From an uncultured Bdellovibrionales bacterium (lineage in GTDB: Bacteria; Patescibacteriota; Minisyncoccia; Moranbacterales; UBA1568), in contig CAZOKB010000001.1 of assembly GCA_964580285.1 (NCBI GenBank), positions 73,366-137,365 on the forward strand: a stretch of 64,000 bases of DNA, given 5' to 3'. Below are positions 2,907-37,117 of this stretch, in pieces. How positions within the stretch are numbered: the first letter of the stretch is position 1; the number at the start of each line of letters is the position of its first letter. The position numbers and the translations under genes are program-made. The notes under the pieces were generated by a model. That model searched no databases and had not been told where the DNA came from. It was given only the letters and a program-made list of their open reading frames with translations.

Positions 2907-4610
2907 ATGGCTGTATGGAAGTTTCGTAGAAAAGAGCGCGCGTTGTTGCCGGGCGTAGGTCATCCTGTAACCAGTATGTTACTTGAGGCTCGGGGGTATG
3001 CGGATCCGGAAGCGCAAGCGTCTTTTTTTTCTCCCCAGTATGATCGTGATCTCCACGATCCGTTTTTGTTTTCTCAAATGGAACGAGCGGTCGAACGGAT
3101 CAAACAGGCGCTTTCGGCCCAAGAGGTTATCGGGATTTTTGGAGATTATGATGCGGACGGCGTGACTTCTTCGGTGGTCATGCGCGAAGCTTTGGAAGCT
3201 CTTGGAGGCAGAGTAGCGGTGTATATCCCGCAGAAAGATACGGAAGGACATGGGTTGAATTCCCAGGCACTCCATTTTTTTGTTGAGCAGGGAGCGAAAC
3301 TTATCATGACGCTTGACTGCGGCATGATGAATCACAAGGAAATTGAGGAAGCGAATGCTCTTGGTTTGGAAGTGATCATTGTCGATCATCACCATGTGCC
3401 GGAAATGCTCCCAGCCGCGTACGCCATTATCAATCCGAAATTGCCCGGAGAGACGTATCCTTTCCAGGATCTGTGCGGGGCGGGGACGGCGTTCAAGGTC
3501 GCTCAGGCATTGTTTCGTCGCTTGGCTCCAGAACAGGAAGAGCAGTTAAAGTGGCTGTTGGATGTGGTGGCGACGGGGACGGTGGCAGATGTGATGCCCC
3601 TCGTTGGCGAGAATCGGGTACTGGTGACCTATGGTCTGGTGGTGCTTTCGCGTACGCGCCGTGTGGGTTTTCAAGCGCTGTTCCAGGTGGGCAAATTGTC
3701 TATCGATGAAGAACGCCGGCCGACAGCGAGGGATATCGGGTTTCAGATCGCTCCGCGCATCAATGCGGCTTCGCGTATGGCGCACGCCATGCTCGCGCAT
3801 AATCTTTTGGTGGAGCAGAATACGGAGCGGGCACTCGAGTTAGCGCTGGAACTTGAAGCGCACAATGTGGCTCGTCAGAAATTAAGTACTTTAGCCACAG
3901 ATCGGGTCAGGTGTTTAGTGGAAGAACAGTATCAAGGAAAGAAATTTATCTTTGCTGTAGGAGAGGAGTATCCCTTTGGTATCGTTGGTTTGATAGCGGG
4001 TCGAGTGGCGAGCACGTATCGGAAACCGACCTGTGTGCTCTATCGAGGCGAGCATGAGAGTATGGGATCGTTTCGGAGTATTCCGGAGTTCAACATTATC
4101 GAAGCGATTGAACAGTGCGCGGATCTTTTGGTGAAATTCGGCGGGCACTCTCAGGCAGCAGGCATGACGATCAAGAATGAGCATCTTGAAGATTTCTATA
4201 CGCGTTTCAGTGGATTGGTAGAAAAAAAGCTAGAGGATGTTGTGACTGAACCGGAATTGTGGATTGATATGCTGCTCGATCCGAGAGATGTAGTTCCAGA
4301 GCTGGTAGCGGATATAACACGTTTTGCTCCTTTTGGTGAAGGGAACCCTGAGCCGGTGTTCTGTTTGACAGATATGGTGGTTCGGCAGGTGCGTTTTGTA
4401 GGGAATGGGAATAAGCACTTGAAACTTTCTCTCGAGACGAGTGACGGGTCTAAAATTTTTGATGCGATTGGTTTTTCGCTCGGAGAGAAGTTTTTGGATA
4501 TGGCTCCAGGGGATCGATTTGACGTGGCTTTTAACTTGGAAGAGAATGTGTGGAATGGACGAACATCCATTCAGTTGAAACTGATTGATTTGGTGCAGAA
4601 AGGAGAATAG
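2907..4610 (+). CDS. recJ: single-stranded-DNA-specific exonuclease RecJ
   Basis: DHH motifs (DYDADGVTS, DHHH) and overall RecJ architecture. Confidence 0.85.
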   Translation: MAVWKFRRKERALLPGVGHPVTSMLLEARGYADPEAQASFFSPQYDRDLHDPFLFSQMERAVERIKQALSAQEVIGIFGDYDADGVTSSVVMREALEALGGRVAVYIPQKDTEGHGLNSQALHFFVEQGAKLIMTLDCGMMNHKEIEEANALGLEVIIVDHHHVPEMLPAAYAIINPKLPGETYPFQDLCGAGTAFKVAQALFRRLAPEQEEQLKWLLDVVATGTVADVMPLVGENRVLVTYGLVVLSRTRRVGFQALFQVGKLSIDEERRPTARDIGFQIAPRINAASRMAHAMLAHNLLVEQNTERALELALELEAHNVARQKLSTLATDRVRCLVEEQYQGKKFIFAVGEEYPFGIVGLIAGRVASTYRKPTCVLYRGEHESMGSFRSIPEFNIIEAIEQCADLLVKFGGHSQAAGMTIKNEHLEDFYTRFSGLVEKKLEDVVTEPELWIDMLLDPRDVVPELVADITRFAPFGEGNPEPVFCLTDMVVRQVRFVGNGNKHLKLSLETSDGSKIFDAIGFSLGEKFLDMAPGDRFDVAFNLEENVWNGRTSIQLKLIDLVQKGE

Positions 4611-5507: not shown

Positions 5508-6530
5508 ATGTTAAACAAAACAAAAGAGTCTATGTTGGTAGGGAAAAAGAAAATATTCGTGATCATCCTGCTCGTGGGTGCCTTAGGTGGGTGGTTTTGG
5601 TGGCATGCTCGGGTACCGAAGGCTCTTTGGGAAACGGTTTCCGTGGGCCGGGGAGATGTATTGGAAACGGTTTCCGTGGTCGGTAAGCTGCGACCGGTTG
5701 AGTATGCCGATATTTCTTTTCCGACACTCGGAACGGTAGAAAAGATTTTTTTTGAAGAAGGCGAATCAGTGAAGCGGGGGGATGTGATTGCAGTGATGAA
5801 TACGGATATTCTTCAATCAGAGTTGAAGCAGGCGGTAGTTGCCTTGTCGATTGCAGAAGAAAATGAGAAACTGGCCCGCCGTGGGTGGGATGATTTGAAG
5901 CCGGAAGAACGTGCTGTAAAGAAACTCACCACAAAGCAGGCGCGTGAAAACGTGCGTACCGTGGCAGCACAGATCGATGAAGCGCGGGCGGTTGCCCCGC
6001 TTGATGGGACCGTGTCTCAGCTTGATATCCGTGCTGGTGAAACCGTGTTGGCGGGTAAAACGATTGGCCGCGTTTCAGGTCCGGGAAATTTCATCATCGA
6101 GGCGAACGTTCCGGAGGCGGATATAGCTCGGGTTGTTCCGGGGAAGCCAGCAACGGTAGTTTTCGATGCCCTTTCGTCGGATGAAAAATTTGAAGCGACG
6201 GTTGTATCGGTGGATCCTTCGGCGAATGTTATTCAAGACGTGATTTACTATACGGTAACGTTCAGTCTAGAGAATCAAGATGCGCGTCTGAAAGAAGGTA
6301 TGAGTGCGGATGTGGATGTGCGTATTTCTGAACGTAAGGATGTGCTTGTGGTACCATACCGCGCCTTGGAGCGTGATGGAAACAAAACATTTGTGGAAGT
6401 AGCTAAGAGCGCTACCGAGTCTGCGCGTCAGCCGGTTACTCTCGGTGTTGAAGGGGATGACGGATCGGTGGAAATCACGTCTGGTTTGGCTGAAGGCGAA
6501 TTGGTCGTTGTGGGGAGGAGTAAGCAGTAG
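5508..6530 (+). CDS. HlyD/MacA-family periplasmic adaptor (membrane fusion protein)
   Basis: N-terminal TM, coiled-coil and beta-barrel regions typical of efflux adaptor subunits. Confidence 0.7.
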   Translation: MLNKTKESMLVGKKKIFVIILLVGALGGWFWWHARVPKALWETVSVGRGDVLETVSVVGKLRPVEYADISFPTLGTVEKIFFEEGESVKRGDVIAVMNTDILQSELKQAVVALSIAEENEKLARRGWDDLKPEERAVKKLTTKQARENVRTVAAQIDEARAVAPLDGTVSQLDIRAGETVLAGKTIGRVSGPGNFIIEANVPEADIARVVPGKPATVVFDALSSDEKFEATVVSVDPSANVIQDVIYYTVTFSLENQDARLKEGMSADVDVRISERKDVLVVPYRALERDGNKTFVEVAKSATESARQPVTLGVEGDDGSVEITSGLAEGELVVVGRSKQ

Positions 6531-26570: not shown

Positions 26571-28811
26571 ATGAGCATGCAAGATGACATTGCTTTTTTC
26601 GCCAAAACGAACTTCCGTAATCAGGAGCGGGTGTTTGGTATCAAGATGGACGACCGTCGCCGACACATGTATGTGATCGGGAAGACGGGTATGGGGAAAA
26701 CCAATCTCCTTGAGAACCTGGTGATTCAGGATATCCAAAAAGGCCACGGCGTGGCGTTTGTCGACCCGCATGGTGATACGGCCGAGAAACTGATCAAGGC
26801 TATCCCAGCCAATCGGATCAACGATGTGATCTATTTCAACCCGTCTGATCAGGATTTCCCGATCGCTTTTAACGTGATGGAAAAAGTAGGTCCGGAATAT
26901 CGGCACCTGGTGGCTTCCGGTTTGGTGGGTGTATTCAAAAAAATCTGGGCAGATTCGTGGGGACCTCGGCTTGAATATATTTTACGGAACGCTATTTTGG
27001 CGCTTCTCGAATACCCGGGGGCTACCCTCTTAGGGGTAACGCGTATTTTGGTAGACAAGGGCTATCGGGAACGAGTGGTAGAAAAGGTAACAGATCCGGT
27101 CGTGAAGAGTTTCTGGGTGGATGAGTTTTCCAAATGGAATGACCGTGTTCTTCAAGAGGTTATCTCGCCGATCCAGAACAAAGTTGGGCAGTTTCTTTCG
27201 AGCTCGCTCATCCGGAATATTGTAGGCCAGACCACATCCTCGTTCGATGTGCGTGCGGCTATGGATAGCCGGAAGATTCTCATTATGAACCTTTCAAAGG
27301 GGCGTATTGGAGAAGATAACAGCGCGCTCCTCGGGGCCATGATGATTACCAAGATCCAGCTCGCGGCTATGGGCCGGGTGGATATGCCAGAAGAAGATCG
27401 GGCAGATTTCTATCTCTATGTCGATGAGTTCCAGAATTTCGCTACGGAATCATTCGCGAATATTCTTTCTGAGGCGAGAAAGTATCACCTCAATCTCGTC
27501 TTGGCCAATCAGTACGTGACGCAGATTGATGAGAAAGTACGGGATGCTATTTTCGGTAATGCAGGCAGCATCATCGCGTTTCGGGTTGGGGCGACCGATG
27601 CGGAATTTCTTGAAAAAGAATTTGATCCTGTTTTTCTCATGAATGACATTGTTAATCTCCCTAAGTACCATATTTACCTCAAACTCATGATTGATGGTAT
27701 TGCGGGGGATGCTTTTAGTGCTGTTTCTCTTCCGCCGATCCGATTGGATCAGACTGAGGAAAACGCCGAAAAAGTCATTCGAATTTCTCGAGAACGGTAC
27801 GCTGCCAACAAAGGGGAAGTGGAAGATAAAATCCGTCGCTGGAGCGGCTTGTTAACGGAAGAGGAAAAAGCGGCGCTCTATAGTGGTGGTGCAGCAGAAC
27901 GACGTTCATTGGAACGACCAGCGCCCAGGGCGGTTCCTCGTCCGGCGGCTACTGTGCCGAAAAAATCAACCGTGATAAGTAGTCGGCCAGCGGCACGGCC
28001 AGTAACACCAGTGGCTGCTCCGCCGCGCCCAGTGACGCCGGTTCCAAAACCGATACCGCAAGCGGTGGTGCCCCAGAAACCCGCAAGGGAACCGGAAGTG
28101 TCGGTAGCCAAGGTTCAAGCGTCTGTACCGGTGCAGGCCGAGACACCCGTGGTTGCCTCGAACCCACTGATAGGTACTGAAGGAGTGAAAAAGGATGCCC
28201 CAACACCTGTTTTTGACCCACGGAAGTTTCAACCGAACCTCATCCGCTGGTCGGGTCATGAAGAGACGGCTAAGAAAAAAGAGGAAGCGCTGCAACAAGA
28301 AGAGCTAACCAATACACCGCCAGTTGAGGAGACAGTGGCGTCCAGCGTTACTCACGAGCCGGTACCGGTTATTGAAATACCAGAGTCAGAAGAAGTATCT
28401 TTGGCAGCAGCAGCGTCGGAGGCAGAGCGTGATGAAGTGCCTGAGAAGGTGTTGTATCCAGCAGCGTGCGCCACGTGCGGTATCGATATCGAGGTTCCGT
28501 TTGAGCCTGTACCGGGGCGCCCCACTTTCTGTAAAGACTGTCTGAAAGATTATCAGCGAGCGACGGCGAAGGCTCGTCGAGAAATGGAATCAAAACAGCA
28601 TCCAATGACTACGACTGCCTCTCTGACACGTTCGTGTACTCCGTCACAACGGCATATGCAGCCACAACGACATATACCGACAGAAGCACCAATGTCGCTC
28701 GCACAGATGCAGCATATCCAGCCGAAAAAATTCAAAACAATCCGTAAAAAACCGGATATTGATTTAGGGGATGTACGTTCGATGATTCAGGCTGTCAGAA
28801 AGGCTCAGTAG
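26571..28811 (+). CDS. TraD/VirD4/HerA-like (type IV coupling protein-like) P-loop ATPase with a Pro/Ala/Val-rich tail and C-terminal C4 zinc ribbon
   Basis: Walker A GKTGMGKTN. T4CP-like LYVDEFQNF...LVLANQY block. Tail repeats of PAARPVTPV. CATCG...CKDC near the C-terminus. Confidence 0.65.
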   Translation: MSMQDDIAFFAKTNFRNQERVFGIKMDDRRRHMYVIGKTGMGKTNLLENLVIQDIQKGHGVAFVDPHGDTAEKLIKAIPANRINDVIYFNPSDQDFPIAFNVMEKVGPEYRHLVASGLVGVFKKIWADSWGPRLEYILRNAILALLEYPGATLLGVTRILVDKGYRERVVEKVTDPVVKSFWVDEFSKWNDRVLQEVISPIQNKVGQFLSSSLIRNIVGQTTSSFDVRAAMDSRKILIMNLSKGRIGEDNSALLGAMMITKIQLAAMGRVDMPEEDRADFYLYVDEFQNFATESFANILSEARKYHLNLVLANQYVTQIDEKVRDAIFGNAGSIIAFRVGATDAEFLEKEFDPVFLMNDIVNLPKYHIYLKLMIDGIAGDAFSAVSLPPIRLDQTEENAEKVIRISRERYAANKGEVEDKIRRWSGLLTEEEKAALYSGGAAERRSLERPAPRAVPRPAATVPKKSTVISSRPAARPVTPVAAPPRPVTPVPKPIPQAVVPQKPAREPEVSVAKVQASVPVQAETPVVASNPLIGTEGVKKDAPTPVFDPRKFQPNLIRWSGHEETAKKKEEALQQEELTNTPPVEETVASSVTHEPVPVIEIPESEEVSLAAAASEAERDEVPEKVLYPAACATCGIDIEVPFEPVPGRPTFCKDCLKDYQRATAKARREMESKQHPMTTTASLTRSCTPSQRHMQPQRHIPTEAPMSLAQMQHIQPKKFKTIRKKPDIDLGDVRSMIQAVRKAQ

Positions 28812-30509: not shown

Positions 30510-31823
30510 ATGGATACTTTTCAAAATGAGAAAGAACCAATGAAAGAATCGATCAAGCCAGCTACTGCTTCTTCAGCGGCTTTCGATTGGGAGCGCCACA
30601 GCCGGTCTTCCTTGAAACTGTTTATGTTCCTTTTGGTGGCTGCCGTGTTTGGTTTCATTGGGGGAACCACGGCTCCTTTCTTTTCAGCTATGCTGAAACA
30701 GCACATGGCCACGCTCTCAACCGGAAAAGAAACATCAACTGGAGAACTTCCAAAACCAGGTCGTCAAGAAGTTTCTTCGCAAGATGATACTATCGTGGTG
30801 GATCTTGTAGGGCGTAATTCTCCAGGTGTCGTCAGTATTGTGATTACGAAAGACGTGCCAAAGGTACGGAATTTTTTCCAGAACCCGTTTTTCTTTGATC
30901 CATTTGGTAGTTCTTTCGGACAACAAAGAGGGTTGGGGGGCGGAGGAACAGAAAAGCAACAGGTAGGGAGTGGGTCCGGGTTTATTGTTTCGGAAGACGG
31001 TTTAGTGGTGACCAACCGGCATGTGGTGGTCGATGCAACAGCGGAGTATACCGTCATCACCAGTGATGGGAAGGAACATGCAGCGACGGTGCTCGCGCGT
31101 GATCCGAATAAAGATATCGCCGTACTTAAGATTGAAGGATCGAATCTGCCGGTACTTGATTTGGGGGATTCGGATACGGTGAAGGTGGGCCAGACGGTGA
31201 TTGCTATCGGGAATCCTTTAGGGGAATTTGCTAATTCCGTCACTCGCGGGATTATTTCTGGCGTAAAACGCGAGGTATATGCGGGCTCATCGAGGAGTGG
31301 TCAGTCTGAACAGCTTTCCGGAATTTTCCAGACGGATGCCGCTATTAATCCAGGGAATTCCGGTGGTCCACTTTTTAATTTGTCTGGTGAAGTGATTGGC
31401 GTAAATGTTGCGATGGCACAGGGGGCGGAAAATATCGCCTTTGCCCTGCCGATCAACCAAGTGAAGCGCGTTATTGATGAGGTGAAGACTACGGGGAAGA
31501 TTTCAACGCCCTATATTGGCGTGCGCTATCTGATTCTAGATGAAGCTATTGCGAAAGAGAATGGGCTACCGCTTGATCATGGTGCCTTAGTCATTCGTGG
31601 AGAAAAAATGACCGACTTCGCGGTGATTCCTGGTTCACCGGCGGATAAGGCGGGTATTGTTGAGAACGATATTCTCCTTGAGGTGAATGGTACGAAAATT
31701 GATGCACAGCATCAGCTCACAGACCTGATCGGGGACAAGCGTGTGGGGGATGAGATTACCTTGAAAGTGTGGCATAAAGGTGACGCCAAGGATGTAAAGC
31801 TCCGGCTTGAGGAGCGGAAGTAG
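30510..31823 (+). CDS. HtrA/DegP-family serine protease with C-terminal PDZ domain
   Basis: Catalytic triad contexts TNRHVV, DIAVLKI and GNSGGPL, plus a PDZ domain. Confidence 0.85.
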   Translation: MDTFQNEKEPMKESIKPATASSAAFDWERHSRSSLKLFMFLLVAAVFGFIGGTTAPFFSAMLKQHMATLSTGKETSTGELPKPGRQEVSSQDDTIVVDLVGRNSPGVVSIVITKDVPKVRNFFQNPFFFDPFGSSFGQQRGLGGGGTEKQQVGSGSGFIVSEDGLVVTNRHVVVDATAEYTVITSDGKEHAATVLARDPNKDIAVLKIEGSNLPVLDLGDSDTVKVGQTVIAIGNPLGEFANSVTRGIISGVKREVYAGSSRSGQSEQLSGIFQTDAAINPGNSGGPLFNLSGEVIGVNVAMAQGAENIAFALPINQVKRVIDEVKTTGKISTPYIGVRYLILDEAIAKENGLPLDHGALVIRGEKMTDFAVIPGSPADKAGIVENDILLEVNGTKIDAQHQLTDLIGDKRVGDEITLKVWHKGDAKDVKLRLEERK

Positions 31824-31866
31824 CGGAAAAGAGAATAGAGAATAGGGAATATTGAATAGTGGGATA

Positions 31867-31892
31867 AAGAGGCTTTTTAAAGCCTCTTTTAG
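31867..31892 (+). terminator. hairpin terminator after htrA (AAGAGGCT-ttttaa-AGCCTCTT, then TTTT)
   Basis: Perfect 8-bp inverted repeat at 31867-31888 followed by a short T-run. Confidence 0.55.
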
Positions 31893-31894
31893 TA

Positions 31895-31923
31895 TTGACA
31901 AAAATATGTAAATATGCTATTTT
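31895..31923 (+). promoter_or_regulatory. sigma70-like promoter of the island (TTGACA, 17 nt spacer, TGcTATTTT)
   Basis: Consensus -35 at 31895-31900 and extended -10 at 31915-31923. It is followed by a ~90 nt 5'-UTR with inverted repeats CTTGATC/GATCAAG and TGTGC/GCACA. Confidence 0.45.
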
Positions 31924-32014
31924 CTCTTGATCCCTGAGTCTGTGCATGGGGCACAATAACTCTTTGTGATCAAGCCGTTCTTTGGCAAATCAACCCTTCT
32001 TTAGGAGAAATACC

Positions 32015-32662
32015 ATGGCAAAAGCTGCCACTCAAGTACAAGACTCCCTCAAGCGCGTCATGCTGACCCTCGAGGGCATCCGGCCGCTCCTCATCAATAC
32101 CATGACGCCGTTTGAAGTCATGGCGCTGAACAAAGATCTTGCGCCGGACGCTGTCAACAAGGTGAAGGCATTGAAGCAGATGACACTGCCCGAGCAGATC
32201 AAGGTGAAGTACGAGCTCTGGCGCGATCCGGAAACCGGCAAGGTCGGCATTTGGTCGCACATGCTCTACGCTGCTCTGGTCGGCGCCGGCAAGTTCATCA
32301 AGTACGAGGGCAACATGAAGCTCTCGACTTCGAAGAGTTCGCTCGTGCCGAGTTTCCTTACCATCGTCGATGAACACCTACCCTTCGTTGATCAGGGTTC
32401 GGACGGGAAGGGAACGCCGTATACGGACGACTACCGGCGTGGCGAGGCCAATCAGGGCAGCGGTGCCGTGTGCGTCGCTCGTCCCATGATCGGAAGCGGC
32501 TGGCGGGTCGGTGTGGATATCGAGGTGGAGACCACTCTTCTCGATCTCGTCCGTACCCGCGAGCTCTTCGACAAGGCGGGGCGCATGTCTCGCTTGGGCT
32601 CTTTCCGCACCAAGGCTGACTTCGGGATGTTCCGGGTCGCCGAGTGGGAAGTGATGAACTAA
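32015..32662 (+). CDS. hypothetical protein (215 aa) and first gene of the GC3-rich island, of unrecognised family
   Basis: ATG at 32015 preceded by AGGAGA. Strongly GC3-biased codons unlike the flanking genes. Confidence 0.6.
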   Translation: MAKAATQVQDSLKRVMLTLEGIRPLLINTMTPFEVMALNKDLAPDAVNKVKALKQMTLPEQIKVKYELWRDPETGKVGIWSHMLYAALVGAGKFIKYEGNMKLSTSKSSLVPSFLTIVDEHLPFVDQGSDGKGTPYTDDYRRGEANQGSGAVCVARPMIGSGWRVGVDIEVETTLLDLVRTRELFDKAGRMSRLGSFRTKADFGMFRVAEWEVMN

Positions 32663-32674
32663 TATCACTCACGC

Positions 32675-34918
32675 AACTGCGGCGACTTCGGTTGCCGCAG
32701 TTCTCAAGTGTATTTGCAAGAGTATACTTGAGACTCTGCTTTTGAAAGAGAGCAGGGTATAGAGAGTATAGCAATGTATTCTTGTGCTACATTCGGTTTC
32801 GCGGATTTTTGTTTTGGATCGATCCTCTGCTTCAGCACGATCGATCATCTTATAAGGATTCGCAAGAGTTTTTATAAGACTTCGCTTTCGAAAAAGAGTG
32901 AAGCGAAAGATGCAGTTGTGTCGTATGCTGAGCTGTTAGGTATTTTGACCCAGTGTCCTTTATTGGCTCGTACCTCTATGAAAATATGCACGAGCATCTA
33001 AAGCATTTTGGTGACAGAATGTTTTGGACAATCTCTTCGTAAGAGGGGATTGTAATGTTGTTATGCAGCGCCGTGTGTTCTTCTTTCCTATACTTTCGCG
33101 TATCCTAGTGGACCGAGCCTCTCCACCAACGCTCGGTCATCCCTGAATACTTTCAAGAAGAGAGTATTGAGGACAACATCCTCGCAAGAGGGGGTTGTAC
33201 AGTAGTTTCGACTTAAGCTAAGCGTTGTTCTTTGACCTAATTTCCACAAGTGTTCTGGACTGAGCCTCTCCGTCAATGACGGACGCTCGGTCATCCTAAG
33301 CGCTTTTGTGAAAGAGTGTTTAGGACAGCATCCTCGTAAGAGGGGGTTGTGAAGTGTAAGTTCGGACTTGTAAAATTACGCAGTCCAAACTCCGCACGAG
33401 TTCTTTATATTACTGGAGCGAACCTCTCCGCCCAAGGCGGACGTTCGCTCGCTGTTCGCGGGATGTATGTCTCGCCTGATGAGCCGGAAACGGCGAAAAC
33501 AGTCGTTCTTTGATACGGTATCCTACCGTAGAGCTAACAGAAGTTATCCTAATTCGCTTCCTGTTTTGGCTCGTACCTCTGCTTTGGTACGTACGAGCAC
33601 CTTAAATATATTGGGAACAGTGTATTTAAGGCATCATCTTCGAAAAAGGATGATGTACTGGGTAGTGTTGGGTCTCGTCAAGCAACGAAAAGTTACCTTG
33701 GATCCTTTCCTGGATCAGCCCTCTGCCTCGGTACGACTGATCATCTTATGAGTATTCGCAAGAGTGTTCATAAGACTCTTCTCTTGGAAGAGAGTAGAGT
33801 GATTCCAGTTACATCCAGTTACGTACTGCTCTCCGTCGTAGTTTATGTTTCTGGCTCGCACCTCTGCTTCGGTACGTACGAGCATCCAAAGCATTTTAGA
33901 AACAGAATGTTTTGGACAATTTTCTTGGAAGAGAAAATTGTGAAGGGAATAATCTCCTATACCGTTGCGCAACGTACGGTCATGTAGCGTAGCGTAATGG
34001 ACCGAGTCTCTGTATAAATTCATACACGCTCGGTCATCTTATGAATATTTGCAAGAGTGTTCATAAGACTCTGCTTTCGAAAGAGAGCGGGGTACAGTAG
34101 TGTGCCGTCATGCATAGTGCAGTAATGTTTTTTACTGGCTCGTATCTCTGTGCAAGCATGTACGAGCAACTTAAATGCATTGTAAGCAGTGTATTTAAGA
34201 CTTCGCTTTCGCAAGAGAGTGAGGTGAAAGATGCAGTTTTGTCGCATGCTGTGTTGTTAGGTATTTTTATCTAGTGTCCTTTATTGGCTCGTGCCTCTAC
34301 TTCGGCACGCACGAGCACCTTAAACGCATTTACAGAAGTGTGTTTAAGACTTTGCTTTCGAAAGAAAGTAAGGTGTACCAATCTCGTAGCGTGTGGCATA
34401 GTTTTCTTCGGATCGGTGCTTTATTCTAAAGGCTCGCATCTCTCTGTTTCGGCGGATGTGTGAGCATCTTAAGTGCATTTGCAAAAGTGTATTTAAGACT
34501 TCGCTTTCGCAAGAGAGCAGAGTATTTCTGTAAAGCACTGTGGCGTACTGTGGCGTGAACTTCTTTGGACTGAATTGGAGCGGTCTGAATTGCTGGCTTG
34601 CGTCTCTGCGAAAGTACGCGCGAGCACCAAAAGTATTTTGGTAACAGAATATTTTGGGTATTATCTTCGCAAGAGGGTGATACTTGTAGATACGTATTCT
34701 CCGGTCCTGAACTGTGTGTTAAATCAATGCAATGGCTCGTACCTCTCTGTTTCGGCAGACGTACGAGCATCCTGAATATTTTCGAAAAGAGAATATTGAG
34801 GACAATCTCTTCGCAAGAGGGGGTTGTCATAGTAGCATCGTGTTGAGCTAGGTCATCTAGTGCACGTGTATAGTAAATTACTGGACCGAGCCTCTTCGTT
34901 AATGACGAACGCTCGGTC
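32675..34918 (+). repeat. tandem array of about 16 degenerate structured-RNA modules with ~146-nt period. Each module is hairpin E1 (5' stem arm then CCTCT), hairpin E2 (10-bp AT-rich stem), GNRA-tetraloop hairpin E3 (CYYYC-GNAA-GAGRG then GGGKTGT), then a ~50-nt variable linker
   Basis: E1 starts at 32675, 32817, 32965, 33110, 33257, 33415, 33568, 33712, 33853, 33998, 34137, 34285, 34430, 34595, 34733, 34882. Stems covary (GGCTCGTAC/GTACGAGC, GGACCGAGC/GCTCGGTC, GGAGCGAAC/GTTCGCTC, GGCTCGTGC/GCACGAGC, GGATCGATC/GATCGATC). ORFs in the region are repeat translations. Confidence 0.7.
33450..33504 (+). ncRNA. type III hammerhead ribozyme HHR-1, with predicted self-cleavage 3' of C33457
   Basis: Stem III CGCUGUU/AACAGUG. 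GUC-like site UUC, cleaved after it. Stem I GCGGG-atgtatgt-CTCGC. Core CUGAUGA at 33476-33482. Stem II GCCG-GAAA-CGGC, then GAAA at 33495-33498. Confidence 0.8.
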
Positions 34919-35018
34919 GCTGTCGGTAGGTGTGTGCCTATCCTGATGAGCCCAGCACTTACATCATCCGATTCATTGATGGTGTAAGTGCATTCCGTAA
35001 GTGCTGGGCGAAACAGCG
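34918..35018 (+). ncRNA. type III hammerhead ribozyme HHR-2, with predicted cleavage 3' of C34924, ending 30 nt upstream of the helicase start codon (in its 5'-UTR)
   Basis: Stem III CGCUGU/ACAGCG (6 bp). Cleavage site GUC at 34922-34924, cleaved after it. Stem I GGUAGG-ugugug-CCUAUC. CUGAUGA at 34943-34949. 12-bp stem II CCCAGCACUUAC/GUAAGUGCUGGG with a 34-nt loop. GAAA at 35010-35013. Confidence 0.85.
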
Positions 35019-35048
35019 TCATGGTTCATTTCCAAGAGGAGTTTGCAC

Positions 35049-36839
35049 ATGCAAACACATATCATGCAGTTTTTCCCGTACGAGAAGTACGAGCAGCCGA
35101 CAGCGCTGCAGGAAACAGCACTTGCCTTTATCGGCGAAAACGCTTCTTTTGGCCCCGTCGTCACTGAGCTCCCCACCGGGACCGGCAAGACCGCCATTGG
35201 CATCGCGTATTTGCGCGCCATGAGTCAGCCGAAACGTGTGAACTTCTACCTGGTTTCGAACAAAGTGCAGGCAGAGCAGGTGAAGTTGATGCACCCCGAG
35301 GTTGAAATCATGCTCGGCCGAAGCGAGCATCAGTGTCTCTATTACGAAGGTGAACAGGTGAACGCGGAAGAGATTCCGTGCATGGCTCTCAAGGACTGTC
35401 CGCATCGTGTGCACCAGCAAAGCGGCGAGACGCATACACTGGGCGCGATTCCGTGTCCGTACCTCAAGCAGAAGTACGACACGAAAAGTGCTCAGATCGT
35501 TGTTGCGACGGTCCCGTTTTATCTCTGCGCTGTTTTCTTCGGGAAGCAGTACGACGTGGGGGCTGTGGTGGTTGACGAGGCGCATAATATCGCCAAGATC
35601 GTGCGTGGGAGCTTGTCGCACCGTCTCTCCAATCACAAGTTGGAGCGGATGATCGGCGTGCTCGAACACTCAGGTTTCGGCGACGAAGCGGAAACGCTCG
35701 GACAGTTCCTCAAGCTGGTGCGTTCTACGATCACAAGGAATAAGAAACAAGAACGTTCGACGCTCGGGACGACGGAAGTGGAGAAGCTGCTTGGGACTTT
35801 GCGCGGGATTGATCGACGCAAGATTGAGGAAGCGATGTATGCTTCGCTCAAGCAGGGTATTCTCAATCCGGTGAGCGACCGCGATCTCTTGAAGCAATTC
35901 GAGGTGCTCTCGCGGGATCTCAAACGTTACATCAACTCGCTGGAGTTCTCTTTGCCGCAGGGTGATCATAAGCCGCTTGCGTATGCGTTTGGGTATCTGG
36001 ATCCGGAGTACGAGGACGGGAAGAAAGACTTTGCACTGGTGATCAAGAATTATCATGTCGCTGGTCTCATCCACCACATGCTTCCGGAGAAGACACTCGC
36101 GTACTCGGCAACCATCGGCGACGCGGAATGTTTCGGTTTTGAAACCGGGCTGCGTGGCGCGTTCACTTCACTTGAGTCGGAATTTGCTCATGAGAAGACG
36201 CGTATCTATATGCCGACCGACACGCAGGATCTTGCGTACGACAGTCGTGGTAATCGCGATGTAGCACGTTCGCTCCGGCTTGTAGCGCGTAGTGTCGCCA
36301 AGTTCAACATGCAAGGGTTGCGATCGCTCGTGGTGCTCGTATCTGAAGACGAACGGCAGCGGTTCTTGCGGATGTGTCCGGAAGCAGAACTAAACGGCGG
36401 AGCTCTTGAAGCTGTTTCGTACGGCAAAGGGGTGACAGCACGGGAAGCCGCGGTGCGGTTTAAGGATGGCGTTGGCGATGTGCTTGTGGGGACGGTGTCG
36501 CAGTACGGCGAGGGGGTTGATCTCCCGAATCGCATTGCACCGGTCATTTTTTATCTCCGACCGGCCTATCCCAATCCCTATGAACCGGAAGCGCAGTTTG
36601 AAGCTAGTCGGTACGGATCGCGCCGGTTTGCGGTTTGGAACTGGCGGGTGATGAACGATCTTCTGCAAGTGCGAGGGCGCAATATCCGCTCGGTGAATGA
36701 CGAAGGGGTCACCTTTCTCATTTCCCAGCAGTTTCGCAAGTTCGCCCGCCCGACACTTCCGAAGTGGCTCCTGCCGGCGTACGTGGCCGACAAGAGTATG
36801 GAAGAGTGCGTGGATGACGCGATGCGACTTCTCGTTTAA
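35049..36839 (+). CDS. DinG/XPD (Rad3)-family FeS-cluster DEAH-box helicase
   Basis: Motif I LPTGTGKT. Four-cysteine FeS insertion (HQCLYY...CMALKDCP...CPY). Motif II VVDEAHN. Strong SD AAGAGGAG 7 nt before ATG 35049. GC3-rich like the island ORF. Confidence 0.75.
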   Translation: MQTHIMQFFPYEKYEQPTALQETALAFIGENASFGPVVTELPTGTGKTAIGIAYLRAMSQPKRVNFYLVSNKVQAEQVKLMHPEVEIMLGRSEHQCLYYEGEQVNAEEIPCMALKDCPHRVHQQSGETHTLGAIPCPYLKQKYDTKSAQIVVATVPFYLCAVFFGKQYDVGAVVVDEAHNIAKIVRGSLSHRLSNHKLERMIGVLEHSGFGDEAETLGQFLKLVRSTITRNKKQERSTLGTTEVEKLLGTLRGIDRRKIEEAMYASLKQGILNPVSDRDLLKQFEVLSRDLKRYINSLEFSLPQGDHKPLAYAFGYLDPEYEDGKKDFALVIKNYHVAGLIHHMLPEKTLAYSATIGDAECFGFETGLRGAFTSLESEFAHEKTRIYMPTDTQDLAYDSRGNRDVARSLRLVARSVAKFNMQGLRSLVVLVSEDERQRFLRMCPEAELNGGALEAVSYGKGVTAREAAVRFKDGVGDVLVGTVSQYGEGVDLPNRIAPVIFYLRPAYPNPYEPEAQFEASRYGSRRFAVWNWRVMNDLLQVRGRNIRSVNDEGVTFLISQQFRKFARPTLPKWLLPAYVADKSMEECVDDAMRLLV

Positions 36840-36860
36840 TTTGGATCAGCTGATCCAATT

Positions 36861-36890
36861 GGCCTACTACTAAAATAGTAGGCCTTTTTC
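36861..36890 (+). terminator. rho-independent terminator of the island (GGCCTACTA-ctaaaa-TAGTAGGCC then TTTTT)
   Basis: Perfect 9-bp stem followed by a T-run, 22 nt after the helicase stop. Confidence 0.75.
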
Positions 36891-36901
36891 TTTTTCCTAA
36901 A

Positions 36902-36928
36902 TTAGCACTCTAGTACTGAGATTGCTAA
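36902..36928 (+). promoter_or_regulatory. CIRCE element (HrcA operator) upstream of clpB
   Basis: TTAGCACTC-N9-GATTGCTAA matches the consensus TTAGCACTC-N9-GAGTGCTAA with one mismatch. Confidence 0.65.
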
Positions 36929-37117
36929 TTTTTTATTGTGGTGATAGAGTAGTAATAAGAAAGATGGAGTACGGAGAAGGGAATAGATGCTATTTCAAGC
37001 GGGTCGATACATCTTCATCATGAAGAGAAAACGCAGATCCCTCGACAAGCTCGGGATGACAGATCAAAGGAATTTTATTCTTAAATCAAAAATCTTATAT
37101 CTTAAATCTTTTTTCTT

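Follow-up and report, generated by a model that had tools for sequence, protein, structure and literature searches.

A conserved type III hammerhead ribozyme between a VIPR guide-RNA array and an XPD/DinG-like helicase gene in Patescibacteria

Introduction

Among RNA-guided machineries that recognize DNA, the class termed VIPR has so far been described in 2026 preprints only. According to the text of one of these (bioRxiv 10.64898/2026.04.26.720920), a VIPR locus combines the vipr gene, which encodes a RAMP, with one accessory gene, and its guide RNAs (vrRNAs) carry 9-16 pentanucleotide repeats (YNNGG, with the variants NNNGG, YNNNG and NNNNG) and, after these, a structured 3' tail. The same text describes 'Hammerhead ribozyme-interspersed arrays' in VIPR types I and V, an architecture that it states was confirmed by small-RNA sequencing; the legend of its fig. 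S20 covers type III and V loci, types III-V have nucleases or helicases, and a type V system was expressed in E. coli. Here, we analyze a 64-kb stretch of contig CAZOKB010000001.1 from an uncultured member of the Patescibacteria (the window), in which a vrRNA array lies between a vipr gene and the gene for an XPD/DinG-family helicase. One hammerhead ribozyme (HHR-1) sits in mid-array and a second (HHR-2) directly before the helicase gene. Coordinates refer to the whole window, and related loci are numbered L001, L004 and so on. Because the array is a VIPR guide array, we consider it probable that a hammerhead-interspersed vrRNA array, part of a chromosomal VIPR system in a Kaiserbacteria-like Patescibacterium, has HHR-2 as its last ribozyme, and that the predicted cleavage of HHR-2 serves primarily to process a guide.

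HHR-2 is a complete type III hammerhead

34918-35018, + strand: HHR-2, type III hammerhead ribozyme (sequence, RF00008 match, descriptor, fold and family covariance model)

HHR-2 is open at stem III and runs from the 5' strand of that stem through the stem I and stem II hairpins to the stem III 3' strand. The 5' strand, CGCUGU (34918-34923), is followed by C17 of the GUC triplet (C34924), and stem III pairs 34919-23 with 35013-17, plus 34918 with 35018. Stem I consists of GGUAGG (34925-30) and CCUAUC (34937-42) around the loop UGUGUG (34931-36), CUGAUGA lies at 34943-49, and GAAA (35010-13) and CAGCG (35014-18) complete the element. The core is intact at 13/13 positions (C3-A9, G12-A14, A15.1-U16.1 with U16.1 at U34923, and C17), and the G10.1-C11.1 pair is intact as well. 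A sequence-only reading of this DNA had placed a hammerhead here with cleavage after C34924; its element coordinates all agree with the sequence, and the type III assignment and predicted cut are borne out by the intact core, the full-model match to the Rfam family RF00008 and the fold. Two helices can be refined. The 12-bp pairing that the reading took for a perfect stem II is present (CCCAGCACUUAC at 34951-62 with GUAAGUGCUGGG at 34997-35008), but the canonical G10.1-C11.1 pair (G34950/C35009) extends the stem (34950-35009) to 13 bp around a 34-nt loop, and RNAfold prefers a bipartite version of 10 bp followed by an inner 9-bp hairpin (UACAUCAUC/GAUGGUGUA). Similarly, both strands of its 6-bp stem III exist, but C34918 doubles as the closing base of hairpin A of the last vrRNA (34884-34918), so that stem III is effectively 5 bp long and stacked on hairpin A.

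In RNAfold predictions for 34918-35018, the minimum free energy (MFE) structure and the centroid both form the hammerhead junction (-41.4 kcal/mol, z=-4.3). The full RF00008 model (positions 1-54) aligns to 34917-35019 at 34.0 bits, with E=3.5e-5 in a local E-value search of 1.3 kb, which rescales by arithmetic to about 2e-3 for the 64-kb window. A clade-specific family covariance model scores HHR-2 at 52.4 bits (E=2e-13); rejection of the fold by a covariance model, an outcome for which the earlier reading had allowed, is thus not what we see. As in RF00008 hammerheads generally, stem III is open, the core is canonical and the 6-bp stem I bears a hexaloop. The RF00008 model has few stem II pairs and a short loop, whereas stem II of HHR-2 has at least 13 bp with an internal hairpin and spans 60 nt overall. 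Loop I keeps the invariant U and the near-invariant G of the ribozyme family; loop II (GAAA) is replaced by the long helix, and a search of HHR-2 for another receptor identified none.

HHR-2 belongs to a conserved ribozyme family

33451-33503, + strand: HHR-1, minimal type III hammerhead with stem II CCG-GAAA-CGG, after hairpin A of the unit at 33415; predicted cut after C33457

In the 662 kb formed by the window and 71 loci, a strict descriptor identified 55 type III hammerheads, exclusively on the helicase strand; the opposite strand and five block-shuffled copies gave no match. When 36 distinct copies were aligned, 13 of the 15 pairs had changed on both sides, and the covariation score was 0.86, compared with 0.30 for shuffled and at most 0.15 for slid partners; this set was picked by a pairing-dependent descriptor, which makes the percentage paired circular and weighs against our interpretation. 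Compensatory changes also separate HHR-2 from its L001 ortholog, and HHR-1 from HHR-2 in stem I. With the family covariance model, 45 matches were obtained across the window plus 14 related loci, where the near-identical contigs L002-L007 count once (as L004); several matches lie outside its training set, and 411 kb of viral loci gave none. HHR-1, also matched by the descriptor, scores 72.1 bits with the family model and 27 bits (E=0.0036) with RF00008. HHR-2 is therefore a real, evolutionarily conserved type III hammerhead, for which cleavage itself is a prediction from its sequence.

Several further features recur in the family. The 10.1/11.1 pair, otherwise near-universally G-C, is replaced by U.U in 7 or more copies (5 loci) and by A.C in 2; the copies with either pair are L008:3221-3271, L011:3561-3611 and 3910-3960, L013:3042-3092, L047:3761-3811, L059:3189-3239 and 6147-6226, L001:2021-2071 (the HHR-2 ortholog, A.C) and L008:2610-2690. 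Directly 3' of stem III, most hammerheads carry a G-W-U-C-U-U-U-G-A motif, in mid-array and before the helicase Shine-Dalgarno (SD) sequence alike (33508-33520 in the window, L004 4076-4090, L008 3826-3840, and also in L009, L017, L040, L021 and L059); after HHR-2 it is degenerate (GGUUCAUUUCCA). Hammerheads also occur 3' of the helicase gene (L004 6132-6182, L008 5890-6527, L009 5242-5292, L017 2340-2390, L021 5948-5998, L040 6479-6529, L059 6147-6226 and L028 6104-6154), where vrRNAs presumably accompany them.

The array upstream of HHR-2 is a VIPR guide-RNA array

32015-32662, + strand: vipr gene, 215-aa Cas7-like RAMP (profile, AF2 and Foldseek matches)
32676-32758, + strand: leader element with hairpins A0, B and C and no preceding tract
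32759-34924, + strand: vrRNA array, 15 units (repeat families, pentamer phase, tail covariation and per-unit folds)

One line of evidence for the identity of the system is its RAMP. Vipr proteins are minimal single-RRM RAMPs with a G-loop and a thumb. A profile of 30 vipr orthologs matches the PDB entry 36pp_D, 'SUSP1 Vipr protein', over its full length (E=2.4e-13), with the G-loop motif GLGDFRP..GPFGRF aligned, and an AF2 model (pLDDT 86, pTM 0.82) has Csm3/Cas7 structures as its top Foldseek matches (E~6e-6, probability 1.0). The gene, with orthologs of 204-226 aa, has no match in Pfam, NCBIfam or PADLOC. It is syntenic with the helicase gene in about 60 of 64 genome loci and lies upstream on the helicase strand in 49. 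Among 44 IMG/VR loci with viral Vipr relatives, no hammerheads were found, and no helicase homolog lies within about 5 kb.

Between vipr and the helicase gene, the non-coding stretch 32663-34924 (2.2 kb) can be divided into about 15 units, each about 145-150 nt long. A unit opens with a tract of G-Y-N-N-N pentamers of about 50-55 nt (~10 pentamers); the structured tail behind it has hairpin A (GG-N7-CCUCU...) as its first element, and per-unit folds recover this hairpin in all 15 units (starts at 32816, 32965, 33110, 33257, 33415, 33568, 33712, 33853, 33999, 34137, 34286, 34431, 34595, 34734 and 34883). In 13 units the tail continues with hairpins B and C; in the remaining two (33415 and 34883), hairpin A is followed by a hammerhead. 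For 19 A+B+C tails taken from the window and L001, a three-hairpin consensus shows compensatory changes in 23 of 31 pairs. We observe that the exact position of the hammerhead is filled by hairpin B, of 12-14 bp, and hairpin C, which has 11 bp and in most cases a GNRA loop (window 32676-34830, L001 971-1932, L008 2754-3548).

Phased on the hairpin A start, the 150 pentamers upstream of the 15 hairpins have G in 55% at position 1, Y in 92% and G in 0% at position 2, variable positions 3-4 and a T-rich position 5. In 14 of the 15 tracts, between 4 and 9 G-Y pentamers are in phase; 50-nt control windows taken elsewhere in the window reach at most 6. Pentamer tracts lie between vipr and the helicase gene in 48 of 49 genome loci, where this intergenic region measures 247-2486 nt. 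Compared with the orthologous tract of L072, whose Vipr is 96% identical, the window differs by 7 substitutions. Each is either a Y-to-Y change at position 2 or a change at position 5, and positions 1, 3 and 4 are untouched, as expected if positions 3-4 carry targeting information.

The locus thus combines a Vipr RAMP with a G-loop, pentamer tracts, a conserved structured tail and an adjacent accessory gene, as VIPR loci do, and we identify the array as a VIPR guide-RNA array with pentamers of the 'YNNNG' variant, not the canonical YNNGG. As far as the preprint's text and its figs. S19 and S20 describe the hammerhead-interspersed arrays of types I and V (bioRxiv 10.64898/2026.04.26.720920), these share with the window a Vipr-family RAMP beside a long non-coding array, pentanucleotide guides with a 3' tail, hammerheads that separate neighboring guides and have their cleavage site where one guide meets the next, and an adjacent accessory gene of DNA-related function. 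Relative to that description, the window differs in its G-Y-N-N-N pentamer (not GGY/NN), in the use of a hammerhead in only 2 of 15 units while the others bear hairpins B and C at the same position, in an accessory gene for an XPD/DinG-like Fe-S helicase, and in a chromosomal patescibacterial locus whose array would be read through into the accessory gene, so that the last ribozyme would also form the 5' end of the mRNA. Within the preprint's types I-VII, the assignment stays at the level of suggestion: the helicase points to types III-V, and the published hammerhead arrays come from types I and V. With type IV-A CRISPR-Cas (Csf2 and CasDinG), the locus shares a Cas7-like RAMP, a DinG-family helicase and an RNA guide array; it differs in lacking a CRISPR array of identical repeats, its guides being pentamer-coded, in the absence of detectable Csf1, Csf3 or Cas6, its RAMP having no PADLOC cas match, and in a helicase with four invariant Cys whose nearest solved structures are archaeal XPD. 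We rejected a degenerate type IV CRISPR locus on the grounds that the units are structured tails of 60-80% identity, that there is a single RAMP gene, and that only the helicase resembles typeIV_DinG.

These observations also bear on the idea that the hammerheads are a chance match, or belong to a generic repeat or to a selfish element of retrozyme type that has no link to RNA guidance, with, for example, hammerhead-flanked units being excised and circularised. In its favor, L008 contains units bounded by two hammerheads 135-310 nt apart, which would bear 5'-OH and 2',3'-cyclic phosphate ends, and such ends are in principle ligatable by RtcB-type ligases. Chance, however, is excluded by the RF00008 match, the absence of descriptor matches on shuffled and opposite strands, and the family model. 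A selfish element accords poorly with an array fixed in place between vipr and the helicase gene, with units that bear the Vipr-type pentamer code, and with hammerheads in just two window units, so that most units are not excisable by that route. We regard this explanation as barely credible.

Some observations on the array stand apart. The leader element, directly after the vipr stop codon, forms three perfect hairpins (MFE -57 kcal/mol). In relatives of 49% identity, a terminator-like hairpin with a T-run lies between vipr and the array (L004 3610-3670, L008 2342-2400), and its position is occupied by the A0+B+C leader in the window and L001; vipr-array transcriptional coupling may differ between lineages. 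The L072 contig (1-2680, corresponding to window 30510-33160) has a Pyr_redox_2 oxidoreductase gene as upstream neighbor, not HtrA, and its array has one additional vrRNA unit and an unrelated second unit, which points to turnover of the array and perhaps to a move of the locus. Rfam searches of the repeat units at E<=10 returned chance-level matches only (mir-33, BTnc231, sX9); the mir-33 match at 34170-34199 (20.8 bits, E=0.088) is spurious and corresponds to hairpin B of the unit at 34137. Hairpins B and C as a known self-cleaving ribozyme were rejected for want of Rfam support and conserved junction nucleotides. Open reading frames (ORFs) over the ribozyme and array (34426-35022 and 33715-34023 on the minus strand, 33467-33751, 34930-35223) have no family matches. 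Small Cys-rich peptides encoded in the tracts were rejected, most tracts having no such ORF; the tiny ORFs behind SD-like sequences in paralogous tracts, MQLCRMLSC (32911-32940) and MQFCRMLCC (34232-34261), are probably coincidental. VIPR systems recognize DNA as a Vipr-vrRNA RNP under a 1-nt skip rule. Searches for vrRNA self-targets in the 64-kb window with skips of 0-2 nt gave none above the null, and the preprint's text reports the same for its own systems (bioRxiv 10.64898/2026.04.26.720920).

HHR-2 as the probable boundary between the last guide and the helicase mRNA

31895-31923, + strand: best candidate sigma-70-like promoter for the operon (TTGACA-17-TATTTT with TG, 10/12 consensus matches, the sole hit above chance level)
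34829-34882, + strand: degenerate tract of the last vrRNA, with 5 G-Y pentamers in phase and a phase slip of 1 nt close to its 3' end
34884-34918, + strand: tail (handle) hairpin A in the last vrRNA, with an outer stem of 8 bp (GACCGAGC/GCUCGGUC), a CUC internal loop and the inner stem UUCGUU/GACGAA
35019-35048, + strand: remainder of the helicase 5' leader (SD AAGAGGAG at 35034-41; ATG 35049, 30 nt after the ribozyme)
35049-36839, + strand: XPD/DinG-family helicase gene, 596 aa, VIPR accessory (vap) gene (Pfam Helicase_C_2 and DEAD_2)
36861-36894, + strand: intrinsic-terminator-like hairpin with T-run at the end of the operon, followed by ClpB

Stem III of HHR-2 directly adjoins hairpin A of the last vrRNA, which is paralogous to the HHR-1 unit (repeat family D8, 73% over 62 nt) and has an orthologous hairpin in L001. 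On the other side, homologs of the helicase, which come from Patescibacteria with named matches in Kaiserbacteria and Paceibacterota and measure 592-605 aa, align from residue 1, and the L001 ortholog starts with MQAHIMQFF at a matching ATG, so that ATG 35049 is the true start codon. The sequence-only reading was therefore right to discount the GTG at 35001 as the start and to place the ribozyme 30 nt before the real one.

The promoter candidate lies directly after a terminator-like hairpin that follows the HtrA gene, and a scan for promoters and terminators between the vipr promoter site and the helicase terminator found nothing above chance. By sequence, vipr, the array and the helicase gene would form one operon in the order promoter (~31895), vipr, about 15 vrRNAs, HHR-2, helicase and terminator (~36861). 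We propose that HHR-2 would fold during transcription and cut after C34924; coming directly after hairpin A, this cut would both create the 3' end of the last vrRNA and release the helicase mRNA. The last vrRNA would then comprise the tract 34829-34882 and hairpin A-GCUGUC with a 2',3'-cyclic phosphate end, and its pentamer tract would be loaded onto Vipr. Melting of the 5-bp stem III would free the helicase mRNA with a 5'-OH and a 5' leader carrying the ribozyme body, which comprises stem I along with the long stem II. That predicted cleavage would sever the helicase mRNA from the array and leave such a leader had already been read from the position of the motif, and we concur.

The boundary position is conserved. 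L001, the closest relative (helicase 82% identical), has the same layout of hairpin A, GCUGUC and hammerhead, 29 nt before the ATG and with a short stem II, and in L004, a Kaiserbacteria genome with 49% identity, a hammerhead lies 33 nt before the helicase start. Across 10 species-level loci (the window, L001, L004, L008, L009, L011, L017, L021, L040 and L059), the helicase-proximal hammerhead ends 28-45 nt before the start codon. Of 13 upstream arrays that bear hammerheads, 10 have one as the last element before the helicase gene. In 11 of 13 loci folded, the end of a stable hairpin lies 0-4 nt ahead of the proximal ribozyme; in the window, L001 and L004 this hairpin is recognisably a vrRNA hairpin A. 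L008 has seven hammerhead copies upstream of the helicase gene.

Self-cleaving ribozymes, the glmS ribozyme among them, occur in bacterial 5' leaders or between cistrons, and intercistronic hammerheads were reportedly described by Perreault et al. in 2011. HHR-2 might accordingly be a dedicated cis-regulatory ribozyme that chiefly controls the helicase, with a 5'-OH, structure-capped mRNA differing in stability or translation from the uncleaved transcript. The glmS-type leader ribozymes follow this pattern, in that cleavage yields a 5'-OH mRNA whose fate is unlike that of the triphosphorylated primary transcript. The conserved spacing to the helicase start and the terminal position in most hammerhead-bearing upstream arrays speak for such a role, as does the SD, which is mostly unpaired in predicted folds and accessible after predicted cleavage; long stem II extensions, moreover, arose in HHR-2 and independently in the helicase-proximal ribozyme of L059, and would give a stable 5' structure. 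Against it, the family also occurs in mid-array and 3' of the helicase gene, its members lie inside vrRNA arrays with a stable hairpin just before most proximal copies, and stem II extensions are found in non-proximal copies too (L008:2610, L059:6147). Only about 14 loci have hammerheads, and about 35 related loci keep the same vipr-array-helicase layout without one, which makes a dedicated helicase-control role secondary at best. Unlike glmS, HHR-2 has no metabolite-sensing domain, a ligand-binding or switch element being absent, and the substrate logic here is primarily that of guide maturation. We thus judge dedicated helicase control unlikely, and the suggestion of the sequence-only reading that the ribozyme is there to set helicase mRNA stability or translation does not hold as its main role. 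An effect of HHR-2 on the helicase transcript is plausible as a by-product of guide processing, one that may be selected, given that the terminal position is kept in 10 of the 13 arrays. Its direction is not to be assumed, as the 5'-OH product of glmS is destabilised (RNase J1).

A lineage-specific insertion in stem II raises doubts about activity

HHR-2 carries a 52-nt insertion at about 34954-35005 that is not in the L001 ortholog, occurs as a single copy in the window and is unrelated to the 41-42-nt stem II insertions of L008:2610 and L059; neither a metagenome pattern scan nor a helicase-based metagenome scan found closer relatives with it. It accounts for several of the points that weigh against guide processing by an active HHR-2. 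The family has a 4-bp stem II with a GAAA loop, present in about 90% of its members, compared with 13 or more bp in HHR-2, where the GAAA loop II is lost; the activity level is therefore uncertain. Since this stem replaces the short GAAA-capped one, the loop I/loop II contact of fast natural hammerheads would not be expected to form in its usual geometry. In longer context, the MFE structure prefers an alternative 14-bp hairpin built on the duplicated GUAAGUGC. Further, the L001 ortholog has a non-canonical A10.1/C11.1 pair, and the tract of the HHR-2 unit is the most degenerate of the array, its 5 G-Y pentamers appearing only after a 1-nt shift and lying within the control range. Finally, HHR-2 is absent from the Rfam gathering scan of the window, which reported only a tRNA: an RF00008 scan, proposed by the earlier reading as a check, thus gives nothing at the gathering threshold (34.0 against 48.5 bits) but does give the full-model local match, the shortfall being due to the 52-nt insertion, the sole penalty in the alignment. 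With HHR-1 also under the threshold, automated annotation would miss both.

Taken together, the lineage-specific insertion, the lost GAAA loop, the alternative pairing, the degenerate tract and the ortholog's A.C pair could mean that HHR-2 is a decaying or inactive copy crippled by the insertion, and that host RNases part the last vrRNA from the mRNA, as for the 13 A+B+C units. Yet the core, the G10.1-C11.1 pair and the four stem II pairs beside the core, which could persist in either predicted fold state, are intact, the MFE and centroid structures of the isolated ribozyme are the active fold, and other family members tolerate 41-42-nt stem II insertions. Minimal hammerheads, moreover, cleave without loop-loop contacts, albeit more slowly. 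We consider loss of function quite improbable and retain a cleaving, guide-processing HHR-2 as the better account.

Helicase relationships and genomic surroundings

The helicase matches the PADLOC typeIV_DinG model over its full length (114 bits, E=2e-33), compared with 39 bits or less for NCBIfam DinG or Rad3 models, and its best PDB relatives are archaeal XPD proteins (E~5e-17). Four invariant cysteines (C96, C111, C117 and C136) are typical of XPD-like Fe-S helicases. This profile may represent an evolutionary link between VIPR accessory helicases and CasDinG.

A phage origin of the locus was rejected: blastn of 32700-37000 against 50,697 phage records gave no match, and the genes of the window are cellular genes of the candidate phyla radiation (CPR; ClpB, HtrA, PPIase, DUF5656). 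About 3 kb upstream of the VIPR operon, at 26571-28811, lies a gene for a 746-aa TrwB/TraG-like type IV coupling-protein homolog with a treble-clef zinc finger, which hints at a mobile-element context nearby.

Discussion

Hammerhead-interspersed vrRNA arrays are already known from the 2026 preprint (bioRxiv 10.64898/2026.04.26.720920). Four features of this locus may be undescribed: a single array that mixes A+B+C with A+hammerhead tails, conservation of a hammerhead where the array meets the helicase gene, an XPD-like Fe-S helicase as VIPR partner, and the apparent chromosomal spread of the system through Paceibacteria-class CPR genomes. Besides the doubts raised by stem II and the tract, two points temper our interpretation. 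For this organism, cleavage and co-transcription are read from the sequence alone, and the preprint's text, its data tables apart, names neither Patescibacteria nor DinG.

A broader scenario remains tentative and rather doubtful. Paceibacteria-class CPR genomes would have a vertically inherited chromosomal VIPR module with interchangeable guide ends, formed by a hammerhead or by protein-dependent processing at B+C, and the terminal hammerhead would be positively selected for linking last-guide maturation to production of a helicase mRNA that is structure-capped and begins with a 5'-OH. If this is true, helicase dosage would be tied to array transcription, and B+C would be an undescribed RNA-processing signal.

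For annotation, Rfam's curated threshold misses both hammerheads, and the 2.2-kb array and vipr are unannotated in every library searched. The pairing of a RAMP with an XPD/DinG-type helicase recalls type IV CRISPR. A single array here offers a natural comparison of ribozyme-processed and non-ribozyme-processed guides, and a hammerhead at the guide/mRNA boundary is conserved in at least 10 species-level lineages. What looked like a 5'-UTR (untranslated region) ribozyme is thereby recast in a concrete and testable role, that of probable guide-RNA maturation in a VIPR system.

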